Counted from the first letter of the stretch, positions 7,447 through 10,698 are shown. The stretch: 13,205 bases of DNA from Candidatus Firestoneibacteriota bacterium (GCA_043822305.1 JBDRBU010000037.1:1-13205); one strand, 5' to 3'. Made by a program: numbers and translations. The notes: a model not told the origin generated them from the letters alone.

Positions 7447-7788
7447 ATGTTAAAGAAAATAGATTGTATTGTGAAGCAAACTAAAATGGATGAGATAATA
7501 CAGTGTCTGTCTGAGGCAAATGTTGGGGGTGTCACCGTTAGCGAGGTGAAAGGATTTGGTTTGCAAAGAGGTTATACTGGGGATAAGAAGAAAGTTACCA
7601 AAGCAGAGCTTTTACCAAAAGTAAGGATAGAAATTATTGTAGAAGAAGAGGAAGTAGAAAAAATAATAAGTATAGTGCAACAATTAGCCCAAACGGGTAA
7701 AGTGGGAGACGGTAAAATATTTGTTCTGCCTGTAGAAGATGTAGTAAGAATAAGAACAAAAGAACGAGGCGAATTAGCTATAAAATAA
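7447..7788 (+). CDS. P-II family nitrogen regulatory protein (GlnB/GlnK-like), 113 aa, atypical T-loop
   Basis: TVSEVKGFGLQRG, LLPKVRIEI, B-loop TGKVGDGKIFV, C-loop VRIRTKERG. Start moved from 7420 to ATG7447 because GAGGAGG lies directly upstream and the length then fits PII. Confidence 0.95.
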   Translation: MLKKIDCIVKQTKMDEIIQCLSEANVGGVTVSEVKGFGLQRGYTGDKKKVTKAELLPKVRIEIIVEEEEVEKIISIVQQLAQTGKVGDGKIFVLPVEDVVRIRTKERGELAIK

Positions 7789-7810
7789 AAATAAAATTAG
7801 GAGGTGTATT

Positions 7811-9073
7811 ATGGTTAGCAAGGATAAAAGGACTCCTTACGAGATGGCAGTCCAACAATTAGATAATGTTGCCAGAGTAATTAATCTGGACGAAGGAATA
7901 TATAAGAAGTTAAAATATTGTAAACGACAACTTATAGTTTCAATTCCTGTATATATGGATAATGGAAAAGTAGAAGTATTTACAGGATATCGTGTTATGC
8001 ATAATGATACGCGAGGACCTGCAAAAGGAGGAATAAGATATCATCCTGATGTTACACTTGATGAAGTAAAAGCATTGTCTATGTGGATGACATGGAAGAC
8101 AGCAGTTGTAAACATTCCATATGGGGGAGCGAAAGGTGGTATAACTTGCAATCCCAAGGAGATGTCTAATAGTGAATTAGAAAAATTAACAAGACGATAT
8201 ACTTCAGAGATTTTAATGGTTATTGGGCCGGAAAAAGATATTCCTGCTCCTGATGTATATACCAATTCTCAGATAATGGCGTGGATTATGGATACATATA
8301 GTATGAATAAAGGTTATGTTGTGCCTGGTGTAGTAACAGGGAAGCCTATAAGTATTGGTGGCTCTTTGGGAAGAGAAGAAGCTACAGGGCGAGGATGTTT
8401 TTTTGTTATCTTAGATGCATGTAAATGTTTGAATTTATTTCCAGAGGATTCTACAGTGGTAATTCAAGGATTTGGAAACGCTGGTTCAGTAGTTGCTAAA
8501 TTATTACAGAAAGAAGGATTTAAAATTATTGCTGTAAGCGATTCAAAAGGGGGTATTTTAAATACTAAAGGACTTGATACTCAAAAACTTATAGAGATAA
8601 AAAAGAAGAACGGGAGCGTTGTAGATTATCGTGATGGAGAAAAAATAAGCAATAAGGAGTTATTAGAACTTAATTGTACAGTACTTGTTCCGGCTGCACT
8701 TGAAAATCAAATTACAGAAGAAAATGCTTCCAGAATAAAAGCCAAAATCATAGCCGAAGCTGCGAATGGACCTACTACTCCTGAGGCAGATGATATTCTT
8801 CACAAGAAAGGGTGTTTTGTTCTGCCTGATATTCTTGCAAATGCAGGCGGTGTAACAGTTTCCTATTTTGAGTGGGTTCAGGCACTTCAATCTTTATTTT
8901 GGAGTGAAAGAGATGTAAATCTTAAATTACGAGATATAATGCAAAGGAGTTACAAGGAAGTATACAGTATTTATTGTGATAAGAATAAAAAGATAAACAT
9001 GAGATTATGTGCATATGCTTTGGCAGTTTCTAGAGTGGCTGAGGCTACAAGAGTAAGAGGAATTTATCCTTAG
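7811..9073 (+). CDS. gdhA: Glutamate dehydrogenase (Glu/Leu/Phe/Val dehydrogenase family, small hexameric type)
   Basis: RGPAKGGIRYHP, MTWKTA, YGGAKGG, DIPAPD, VTGKP...GGSLGR, Rossmann QGFGNAG, EAANGP, PDILANAGGVTVSYFEW. RBS AGGAGG. Confidence 0.96.
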   Translation: MVSKDKRTPYEMAVQQLDNVARVINLDEGIYKKLKYCKRQLIVSIPVYMDNGKVEVFTGYRVMHNDTRGPAKGGIRYHPDVTLDEVKALSMWMTWKTAVVNIPYGGAKGGITCNPKEMSNSELEKLTRRYTSEILMVIGPEKDIPAPDVYTNSQIMAWIMDTYSMNKGYVVPGVVTGKPISIGGSLGREEATGRGCFFVILDACKCLNLFPEDSTVVIQGFGNAGSVVAKLLQKEGFKIIAVSDSKGGILNTKGLDTQKLIEIKKKNGSVVDYRDGEKISNKELLELNCTVLVPAALENQITEENASRIKAKIIAEAANGPTTPEADDILHKKGCFVLPDILANAGGVTVSYFEWVQALQSLFWSERDVNLKLRDIMQRSYKEVYSIYCDKNKKINMRLCAYALAVSRVAEATRVRGIYP

Positions 9074-9096
9074 AAAATTTAGGGGAGGTAATAATT

Positions 9097-10698
9097 ATGA
9101 ATTATCAACAACCTAATGCTAATGAATCAACTGGTACAAAGAATCGTTCGCAGAATGTAGCACCAACTTCGGGAATATGTACTGTTTGTCGAGAAGATTG
9201 TGCTGGTAACTGTGAGATATTTAAAGCATCATTTAGAGGGAGAGAAGTTATATATCCTGAGCCGTTTGGCAAAATTACAGCAGGAGCAGATAAAGAATAT
9301 CCCGTAGATTACTCACATCTTAATATAATGGGTTATGCACTTGGTGCTGAGGCAATTGATGAAGCGAATCCTGATAAGGCAATTTTTCCAGAAGTAGATA
9401 CTTCAACTGTGTATGGACATAGTCATCCGGTTCGCATGAAAATGCCTATATTTACTGGAGCATTGGGTTCAACTGATATTGCCAGAAAACATTGGGATAG
9501 TTTTGCTATTGGAGCAGCTATTTCAGGTATATCGTTGGTTGTCGGAGAAAATGTTTGTGGTATTGACCCGGGTCTTGAATTAGATAAGAATGGGAAAGTT
9601 AAAAGGTCTCCGGAAATGGAGCGAAGAGTAAAAATTTATAAAGAATGGCAGGAGGATTATGGAGATATTATTGTACAGATGAATGTTGAAGATACTCGTC
9701 TTGGAGTTGCAGAGTATGTAGTTAGAGAACTTGGTGTTCAAACTATTGAGTTAAAATGGGGACAAGGTGCAAAGTGTATTGGTGGAGAAATTAAAGTTTC
9801 TGATTTAACCCGAGCACTTGAACTTCAAAAAAGAGGATATATTATAACTCCTAATCCATCAAATCCAGCCGTGCAAACTGCTTTTAAAAAAGGTGCCTTA
9901 AAACAGTTTGAGAGGCATTCAAGATTAGGTTTTGTTAATGAAGGTGAATTTTTACGAGCAGTAGAATATTTAAGGCGAACTGTTGGAGTAAAGCGCGTAA
10001 CACTTAAAACAGGTGCATATGGTTTACGAGAATTAGCCATGGCTATAAGATGGTCATCTAAAGCCAGGGTTGATTTAGTGACTATAGATGGAGCCGGTGG
10101 TGGGACGGGAATGAGTCCATGGAGAATGATGGAAGAATGGGGAATTCCAACTTTTTATTTGCAGACAATGGCCTATCAATGTGCACAAAAACTCGCTACT
10201 CGTGGAGTCTGGGTTCCTGGTTTAGCTATGGCCGGAGGATTTTCTACTGAAGACCATATCTTTAAAGTGCTGGCCATGGGTTCACCATATTTTAAAGCAG
10301 TATGTATGGGTAGAGCACTTATGATTCCGGGTTTTGTTGGAGATAATATTGAAAAGGTGCTTAAGAATGGTCAGAGGGGCTATTGGGAAAAACTATCACC
10401 TATGGTTTCAAAATATGGAAGTAAACCTGAAGAGATTTTTGTTACTTATTCAACTCTTGAAGAAAAATATGGTAAGAAGATGAAAAATATTCCTTTAGGG
10501 GCTATGGCTTTATACACTTTTATAGATAAATTAAAAACAGGCTTATCACAATTTATGGCCGGAGCCAGGAGTTTTCGTTTGGATACCGTGAAGCGTGCCG
10601 ATTTAATAGCTTTAACTGAGGAAACAGCAAAAATTTCAGGAATACCTTATATTATGGATGCCTACAAGGAAGAAGCAGACAGAATATTAAGTTCTTAA
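9097..10698 (+). CDS. Stand-alone FMN-binding glutamate synthase family protein (GltB synthase-domain homolog)
   Basis: MPIFTGALGS, IELKWGQGAKCIGGEI (cf. GltB IKxAQGAKPGEGGQL), TIDGAGGGTGMSP, EWGIP, AMAGGF, CMGR. N-terminal CxxCxxxCxxxC. No glutaminase domain. RBS GGGGAGG. Confidence 0.9.
   Translation: MNYQQPNANESTGTKNRSQNVAPTSGICTVCREDCAGNCEIFKASFRGREVIYPEPFGKITAGADKEYPVDYSHLNIMGYALGAEAIDEANPDKAIFPEVDTSTVYGHSHPVRMKMPIFTGALGSTDIARKHWDSFAIGAAISGISLVVGENVCGIDPGLELDKNGKVKRSPEMERRVKIYKEWQEDYGDIIVQMNVEDTRLGVAEYVVRELGVQTIELKWGQGAKCIGGEIKVSDLTRALELQKRGYIITPNPSNPAVQTAFKKGALKQFERHSRLGFVNEGEFLRAVEYLRRTVGVKRVTLKTGAYGLRELAMAIRWSSKARVDLVTIDGAGGGTGMSPWRMMEEWGIPTFYLQTMAYQCAQKLATRGVWVPGLAMAGGFSTEDHIFKVLAMGSPYFKAVCMGRALMIPGFVGDNIEKVLKNGQRGYWEKLSPMVSKYGSKPEEIFVTYSTLEEKYGKKMKNIPLGAMALYTFIDKLKTGLSQFMAGARSFRLDTVKRADLIALTEETAKISGIPYIMDAYKEEADRILSS

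Follow-up and report, generated by a model that had tools for sequence, protein, structure and literature searches.

Few signal proteins are as widespread as those of the PII family, whose known targets continue to increase in number. Their target-contacting part is the T-loop, in which a Tyr46/Arg47/Tyr51 motif serves AmtB plugging and uridylylation. The closest analogy to the system reported here is the pairing of PII with N-acetylglutamate kinase (NAGK): this kinase and glutamate dehydrogenase (GDH) are both hexamers with 32 symmetry, and the same capping geometry is conceivable for the two. GDH stands at the meeting point of carbon and nitrogen metabolism, where it makes or consumes 2-oxoglutarate, the very metabolite that PII senses. 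Glutamate synthase (GOGAT) also exists in a split form, the archaeal/Thermotoga type, with separate GltB1 glutaminase, GltB2 flavin mononucleotide (FMN), and GltB3 GXGXG proteins. We analysed 13,205 nucleotides (nt) of DNA from a Candidatus Firestoneibacteriota bacterium (GCA_043822305.1 JBDRBU010000037.1:1-13205; the window is this whole stretch), in which an operon at 7447..10698 encodes a PII protein, a GDH, and an FMN/iron-sulfur (Fe-S) protein resembling the synthase domain of GltB. An earlier note on this DNA had proposed that the three genes form a PII-gated glutamate switch. The tie between PII and GDH stood up to comparison across genomes, since this PII belongs to a separate clade whose genes lie directly 5' of gdh in three phylum-level groups and, in the loci examined, not beside amtB; the triad as a unit did not. 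GDH is thus a new candidate target of PII signalling, one hard-wired in the genome, and the comparative support for the PII-GDH tie is unexpectedly strong.

The product of the first gene matches the Pfam family P-II (PF00543; 98.7 bits against a cut-off of 25, E = 2.8e-28, residues 12-115 of the longer of two possible open reading frames, ORFs) and does not reach the NCBIfam equivalogs for GlnB (NF008111; 100.6 bits against 202) or GlnK (NF007946; 92.4 against 181). Its best match in the PDB is 2eg1 (1.6e-33), and 41 PDB PII sequences are found at E ≤ 1e-10; the PII chains matched include those of 2jj4, 2v5h, and 2rd5, which we take to be NAGK complexes. Among 5.8 billion proteins searched, the closest homologue is 64% identical and the next ones 55%. 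The T-loop, GLQRGYTGDKKKVT-KAELLPK, is one residue shorter than the canonical one; it has no YRGAEY motif and no Tyr at the position aligned to Tyr51, the uridylylation site. The same type of loop is present in six of the best database matches. The residues Q40, K58, G87, G89, K90, R101, and R103 are invariant in a 13-sequence alignment of the clade (A4), and they are also invariant in alignment A2 except for R103, which is nearly so. Binding of ATP/ADP and 2-oxoglutarate is presumably the role of these positions (Q39, K58, G87, G89, K90, R101, and R103 in the E. coli numbering). Cys7 is invariant in A4 as well. In the FastTree phylogeny, a clade of 15 short-T-loop PIIs (Shimodaira-Hasegawa-like support 96) contains the window PII, and all nine AmtB-linked PIIs fall outside it. 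We assigned proteins to the clade by this grouping, the T-loop shortened by one residue, and Cys7, all of which are found in the window PII.

In the window, gdh is the next gene after that of PII, on the same strand and after a gap of 22 nt. We searched for the same arrangement in a sample of 401 genomes of the actinobacterial phylum that holds locus L022. They encode two groups of PII: short-loop proteins 68-82% identical to protein P0145, and canonical ones flanked by amtB. Within one class, 35 of 87 genomes have a match to the clade profile A4; one of these matches (G540) has a borderline score, lies beside amtB, and is probably a canonical PII. Loci could be built for 31 of the 38 matches in this class: 25 have gdh downstream on the same strand, with 18-125 nt between alignment ends, one has a fragmentary gdh match, four have no gdh, and one has no sequence available downstream. 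In the extended actinobacterial loci, the PII gene and gdh are 3-30 nt apart or overlap by 4 nt, and one of the gene orders is aminotransferase-oxidoreductase-PII-gdh. Of the 34 clade-bearing genomes of the class, 24 also carry amtB, in every case on another contig or 95 kb away. The third phylum, Candidatus Omnitrophota (which holds L005), has the clade PII in 2 of 65 genomes, and in both of them gdh overlaps it by 8 nt. A third-phylum pair lies in locus L296 (G955:C252, 327-9198), a co-oriented row of carB, guaA(C) (the glutaminase-less C-terminal subunit of GMP synthase), gdh, PII, gdh, and glnA; the GDH paralogues on either side of PII share 58% and 65% identity with that of the window. 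A further pair is probable: the 64% PII homologue (P0123) and a 71% GDH homologue (P0397) come from the same source, each on a single contig of 3376 bp, and because of this equal length we infer that the contig is one and the same. A search of 331 genomes from a fourth phylum did not find the clade PII: the best matches there (1e-39 to 1e-41) score like the AmtB-linked canonical PIIs of the actinobacterial sample. Within the window's own phylum, we found it in this genome and no other, and related genomes retain amtB-glnK clusters of the canonical kind. We also observed a second kind of PII in Omnitrophota, with a T-loop about seven residues shorter, at L010 (8576-8890) and L194 (+1058 past the FMN gene). 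It is encoded between the FMN gene and amtB, 5' of a canonical glnK, and falls outside the GDH-linked clade.

The second gene encodes a member of the ELFV family (ELFV_dehydrog_N, PF02812, 198 bits, 5e-59; ELFV_dehydrog, PF00208, 272.8 bits, 4e-81). Its score with NCBIfam GdhA_Arch, 577 bits, is under the equivalog cut-off of 750, so that the substrate and cofactor specificity is not fixed by a curated model. The best homologue of this GDH is 85% identical. Prediction of a complex between PII and GDH (alignments A3 and A2) gave scores of 0.41, 0.00, and 0.00 against a mark of 0.32, which speak neither for nor against binding. The window GDH shares 65-73% identity with GDHs outside its phylum but at most 46% with those inside it (38-41% within the same order); the window PII is at most 47% identical to PIIs of its own phylum. 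These low identities within the phylum, together with the raised G+C content of the operon (0.36-0.38, compared with mostly 0.26-0.31 across the window), suggest that the module was laterally acquired by this genome.

The operon is on contig 37 of a genome of 2.15 Mb, 96.8% complete, which encodes one PII, one GDH, one glnA, and one GltD-like/PyrK-like (NfnAB-type) pair. The glnA gene, on contig 118, has a nuclease gene on one side and one for spermidine synthase on the other; the GltD-like/PyrK-like pair is on contig 98. Searches for AmtB, GATase_2 (PF00310), and GXGXG (PF01493) gave no match in this 96.8%-complete assembly, whose incompleteness means that absence is not proven. GATase_2, or canonical GltB, is present in 87 of the 99 genomes of the phylum. 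With glnA and the GltD/PyrK pair elsewhere and no match to GATase_2 or GXGXG, all the dedicated glutamate-forming genes that can be found sit in this operon. The genome has two other weak matches to PF01645, which are IMP dehydrogenase and nitronate monooxygenase, not GltB paralogues.

The earlier note had called the third product a stand-alone GltB(FMN), a label that goes too far: two GltB motifs are shared, but the 3Fe-4S motif is missing and the fold is tied with those of other FMN TIM barrels. The protein matches Pfam Glu_synthase (PF01645; 56.2 bits against a cut-off of 20.4, E = 4.3e-15) at model positions 186-309 of 369, and it has no match in NCBIfam and no sequence match in the PDB. 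Profile comparison with a canonical GltB of 1515 residues using hhalign gave a probability of 8.7 and E = 0.0038. We took as tests of a GltB synthase domain the substrate loop QGAK(P)GEGG and the FMN-phosphate motif GGTGA(S)P, and both have counterparts: WGQGAKCIGGE aligns with QGAKPGEGG, and GGGTGMSP with GGTGASP, of the canonical GltB from genome G070, a member of the window's phylum. The 3Fe-4S motif C-x5-C-x4-C, at residue 1136 in canonical GltB, is absent. The protein has an N-terminal motif C28-x2-C31-x3-C35-x3-C39, which is kept in 28-29 of 30 family members. Its relationship to the synthase domain of GltB is only a distant one. In a Foldseek search with the AlphaFold2 (AF2) model (predicted local distance difference test 85.8), the top match is Fd-GltS 1ofd (E = 2.4e-10, 15% identity), with lactate and glycolate oxidases, IMP dehydrogenase, and IDI-2 close behind. 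All matches from the ESM Atlas are automatically named members of the protein's own family. At the synthase site of GltS, ammonia is added to 2-oxoglutarate before the FMN and the imine is reduced, as set out in Vanoni 2021 (PMC8097209). By analogy, we propose that the window protein may carry out an ammonia-dependent reductive amination fed through its N-terminal cluster.

Homologues of the FMN protein number in the thousands, at 63-93% identity across many phyla, and phyla are freely mixed in their FastTree phylogeny (we disregarded seven long-branch rows due to crude ORF picking). We studied the context of the family in 160 loci (80 genomic and 80 metagenomic) spanning up to 6 kb on each side, scored their neighbours by tblastn at ≥50% query cover, and additionally checked the neighbours' identities by Pfam on cluster representatives. 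The neighbours were glutamine synthetase (33 of the 160 loci), GAF-ANTAR (28), GltD-like (14), PII and LysR (13 each), GDH, AmtB, and PyrK-like (12 each), and NrpR (10), and nitrogen genes are far commoner near this family than expected by chance. None of the 160 loci has the PII-GDH-FMN triad, and the FMN gene is missing from all six PII-GDH loci of other genomes that were extended; the conserved triad that the synteny search was to reveal thus found no support. The family is present in 18 of the 99 genomes of the window's phylum and in none of 11 genomes of the same order. The closest relative (79% identity, same class) is encoded in L199 (G017:C36, 4107-12939), in the order glnA-FMN-purF-like-carA-carB, with 24 nt between glnA and the FMN gene and a PurF-like amidotransferase of 398 residues; the PIIs of that genome are in an amtB-glnK-amtB-glnK-glnA cluster. 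Another genome has GAF/ANTAR-FMN-gltB-gltD. The absence of triads and the variety of nitrogen neighbours lead us to regard the FMN gene as a mobile member of the nitrogen regulon that belongs to no fixed triad. A candidate electron donor is the NfnAB-like pair, because it lies beside the family in 12-14 of the 160 loci and is present in this genome. In L026, L028, L029, L151, and L152 (Leptospira/Spirochaetota and metagenome contigs), the FMN gene divergently adjoins such a GltD-like and PyrK-like (NfnAB-type) pair, which suggests a dedicated electron-donor module for the glutaminase-less enzyme.

The layout of the operon (Table 1) largely agrees with its first description. The three genes are co-oriented, as the ORF list and the sequence both show, with gaps of 22 nt (7789-7810) between PII and GDH and 23 nt (9074-9096) between GDH and FMN. 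The Shine-Dalgarno sites noted for each gene are there, with GGAGG at 7438-7442, 7800-7804, and 9084-9088, which is 4, 6, and 8 nt 5' of the ATGs at 7447, 7811, and 9097. The first ORF has two possible starts, running from 7420 or 7447 through 7788 (+), and this spacing makes 7447 the likely start of PII. Neither the ORF list nor Pfam places amtB, glnA, a GltB glutaminase, or gltD in the operon, as the note had it. Its upstream promoter matches the consensus but is not statistically special, because the region has 21 promoter-like sites compared with 18.8 ± 4.7 in shuffles; a stronger divergent site (11/12, 7322-7295, - strand) serves the PurD-like gene. Its closing hairpin exists (minimum free energy of the region 3' of the operon -21.4 kcal/mol, z -2.9), but it has no U tract on the + strand and a T run on the opposite one, and is therefore not a canonical intrinsic terminator for the operon. 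A leader hairpin at 7412-7434 is not significant (z -0.9) and shows no ANTAR-type hexaloop; by the NrpR consensus, it is not an NrpR operator either. The best match to NrpR in this genome scores 18.9 bits, under the cut-off. A search for ANTAR gave no match here, nor did it in the control genomes. Rfam, run over the whole window, gave a single chance-level snoRNA match and no riboswitch or leader family.

Table 1. Features of the operon and of its surroundings, in positions of the window.
Feature	Position	Strand	Remarks
PII signal protein gene, 113 residues	7447..7788	+	Pfam P-II; only PII found in the genome
Hexameric-type GDH gene, 420 residues	7811..9073	+	Pfam; only ELFV dehydrogenase found in the genome
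FMN TIM-barrel protein gene, 533 residues	9097..10698	+	Partial Pfam Glu_synthase; without glutaminase domain
Promoter-like TTGTAA-17 nt-TATAAT, 5' of the PII gene	7351..7379	+	Consensus match, 10/12
G+C-rich hairpin CCCCCUU-UAUU-AAGGGGG, 54 nt past the FMN gene stop	10752..10769	+	Folding
ORF, 430 residues	157-1449	+	No Pfam family; faint NCBIfam match to a polyhydroxyalkanoate (PHA) depolymerase domain; stretch of raised G+C (0.36)
ATP-grasp protein gene, 436 residues	5965-7275	-	Weakly PurD-like (TIGR00877, 102 bits against a cut-off of 288; GARS_A, 1.3e-11)
AbrB/MazE-type antitoxin gene, 79 residues	10846-11085	+
Short PIN/VapC-like N-terminal frame (LDTSVIIAYL...)	11100-11255	+	No start codon; stop after ~55 residues
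ORF, 107 residues	12616-12939	-	Matches only the first 77 of 560 positions of the CstA (carbon starvation) model

Among the flanking genes, the divergent PurD-like one has a common promoter region of 171 bp with the PII operon. The antitoxin gene and the PIN/VapC-like frame that follows it look like a decayed toxin-antitoxin pair, and the CstA-matching ORF looks like the remnant of a truncated transporter gene.

We lean, with somewhat less than even confidence, towards reading the PII as a 2-oxoglutarate sensor dedicated to GDH and the FMN enzyme as a lineage-specific, local addition. The operon would thus serve glutamate and nitrogen metabolism with two parts, a conserved PII-gdh module and the FMN/Fe-S protein. 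The PII trimer would read 2-oxoglutarate and the adenylate state, bind the GDH hexamer directly, and tune or gate its activity, much as PII does with hexameric NAGK. The FMN/Fe-S protein, drawn from the nitrogen regulon, would most likely reduce the 2-iminoglutarate that free ammonia forms with 2-oxoglutarate, with ferredoxin or the NfnAB-like GltD/PyrK pair of contig 98 as the source of low-potential electrons, and could provide a second route to glutamate in a small genome without GOGAT or AmtB. A bolder version appears to us rather unlikely: the clade PII would be a dedicated allosteric partner of GDH, with two trimers capping the threefold poles of the hexamer as in PII-NAGK; 2-oxoglutarate and ATP/ADP would switch between ammonium assimilation and glutamate breakdown; and the module would have recruited an ammonia-dependent glutamate synthase of the ferredoxin type, giving a self-contained glutamate switch.

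Several observations weigh against a PII dedicated to GDH. Gene adjacency can reflect co-expression only, with PII placed before gdh for joint production, acting on unlinked targets (glutamine synthetase, biotin carboxyl carrier protein, transcription factors), and never touching GDH; we take this explanation seriously and still consider it on the unlikely side. PII genes are indeed common in nitrogen operons without PII binding every neighbour, as in the FMN-amtB-PII-glnA rows of L072, L183, L190, and L193; glnB precedes glnA in some bacteria; and the third-phylum pair is embedded in a larger nitrogen row. Moreover, four clade PIIs of the actinobacterial class precede genes other than gdh, namely a class I/II aminotransferase (one) and an uncharacterised ORF of 159 residues (at least two). 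The T-loop sequences of the three phyla are unlike one another and reveal no common contact motif. Because the actinobacterial genomes are related, their 25 cases may trace to a single ancestral event, which reduces the independent support to about three lineages; the many actinobacterial cases are retention of the pair, not many independent origins. Against co-expression as the whole explanation, the clade is separate from the AmtB-linked PIIs, the part of the protein that was remodelled is the target-contacting loop, and the tight or overlapping junction with gdh was kept in three phyla while the surrounding genes differ.

The FMN gene raises two other explanations. The full triad might be the switch, with PII gating both GDH and the FMN enzyme, or with these two forming a counter-enzyme complex like GudB-GltAB of Bacillus subtilis. 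The co-orientation and short gaps of the three genes fit this, as does the fact that 12 of the 160 loci have GDH no more than 6 kb from the FMN gene, directly adjacent to it in L157, L039, L031, L129, L146, and L147; by a rough estimate, chance would give about 0.4-0.8% for a 3-Mb genome with one or two GDH genes, well below this. PDB 7MFM, going by its title, shows a GDH bound to a glutamate synthase. However, the triad recurs in neither set of loci, the closest FMN orthologues sit with glnA, with gltBD, or alone, and the protein lacks most of the GltAB surface, having no glutaminase, central, or GXGXG domain. We judge this explanation distinctly improbable. The note's other alternative, an NAD(P)/ferredoxin electron-exchange cycle, found no evidence in these data, and we set it aside. 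Alternatively, the FMN protein might be unrelated to glutamate, as another FMN/Fe-S oxidoreductase (for example, of 2-hydroxy or 2-oxo acids) sharing with GltB the barrel and the phosphate-binding motifs. The Glu_synthase match spans just 124 of 369 model positions, the curated families and PDB sequences give no match, and C-x5-C-x4-C is missing. In VIA-align, IDI-2, flavocytochrome b2, and glycolate oxidase score at Z ~27 and GltS is not among the 50 matches listed, so structure searches with a predicted model cannot assign the protein to GltS over other FMN barrels. These points count against a role in making glutamate. The gene also co-occurs with canonical gltBD in some genomes and is therefore not simply a substitute for GOGAT. 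Yet Foldseek puts Fd-GltS on top, QGAK..GG and GGTG.SP align with canonical GltB, and the family lies beside glnA, amtB-glnK, gdh, nrpR, and GAF-ANTAR genes in many phyla, which makes a function outside glutamate metabolism improbable in our view.

With its gene firmly joined to gdh in three phyla, this PII clade is a concrete and easily testable candidate for PII control of GDH, and about thirty natural PII-GDH pairs are on offer. If true, it would be an undescribed direct link between the universal sensor of 2-oxoglutarate and an enzyme that makes or consumes it. The FMN protein is a highly conserved (65-83% identity across phyla), uncharacterised relative of glutamate synthase without glutaminase, through which anaerobes may assimilate ammonium by a third route. 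The earlier note knew of no characterised operon of this form, and our full-text literature search agrees: judged by listings and abstracts, no paper that it returned describes a PII-gdh operon or a PII-GDH complex, subscription-only papers being outside its scope, so that a description in print may exist. In one preprint (10.1101/2023.08.10.552651), GDH appears as an assay reagent only.

The locus resembles PII-NAGK of cyanobacteria and plants in combining a trimeric PII, sensing 2-oxoglutarate and ATP/ADP and making contact through the T-loop, with a hexameric enzyme of glutamate-family metabolism. It differs in that the candidate target is GDH and the T-loop is shorter and lacks the contact residues. 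It also differs in the adjacency of the genes for PII and its target; to our knowledge, cyanobacterial glnB and argB are not adjacent. As in amtB-glnK, PII is in an operon with its (here putative) target and has the same fold and ligand-site residues, but in the loci examined this clade is never beside amtB, its T-loop has no Arg47-type tip and no Tyr51, and the genome has no match to AmtB. The GudB-GltAB system of Bacillus subtilis (PDB 7MFM) similarly links a GDH with an enzyme of the glutamate synthase type in the control of glutamate; there, GltA and GltB are full-length and no PII takes part, whereas here a stand-alone barrel of 533 residues has an only occasional link to gdh (12 of 160 loci). 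The split glutamate synthases also have the FMN domain as a separate protein of ~500 residues with its own Cys cluster. Unlike in those, searches of this genome found neither a GATase_2 nor a GXGXG partner, the family co-occurs elsewhere with full-length gltBD, and the Cys motif is an N-terminal CxxCxxxCxxxC, not a ferredoxin insert. Finally, the Omnitrophota clusters of the type gdh-GAF/ANTAR-FMN-amtB-glnK-glnA (L010, L072, L183, L190, L193, and L194) place the same FMN family among nitrogen-assimilation genes, with gdh and PII sometimes within 6 kb of the FMN gene. In these clusters, the FMN gene is under an ANTAR regulator, and PII goes with amtB and falls outside the GDH-linked clade.

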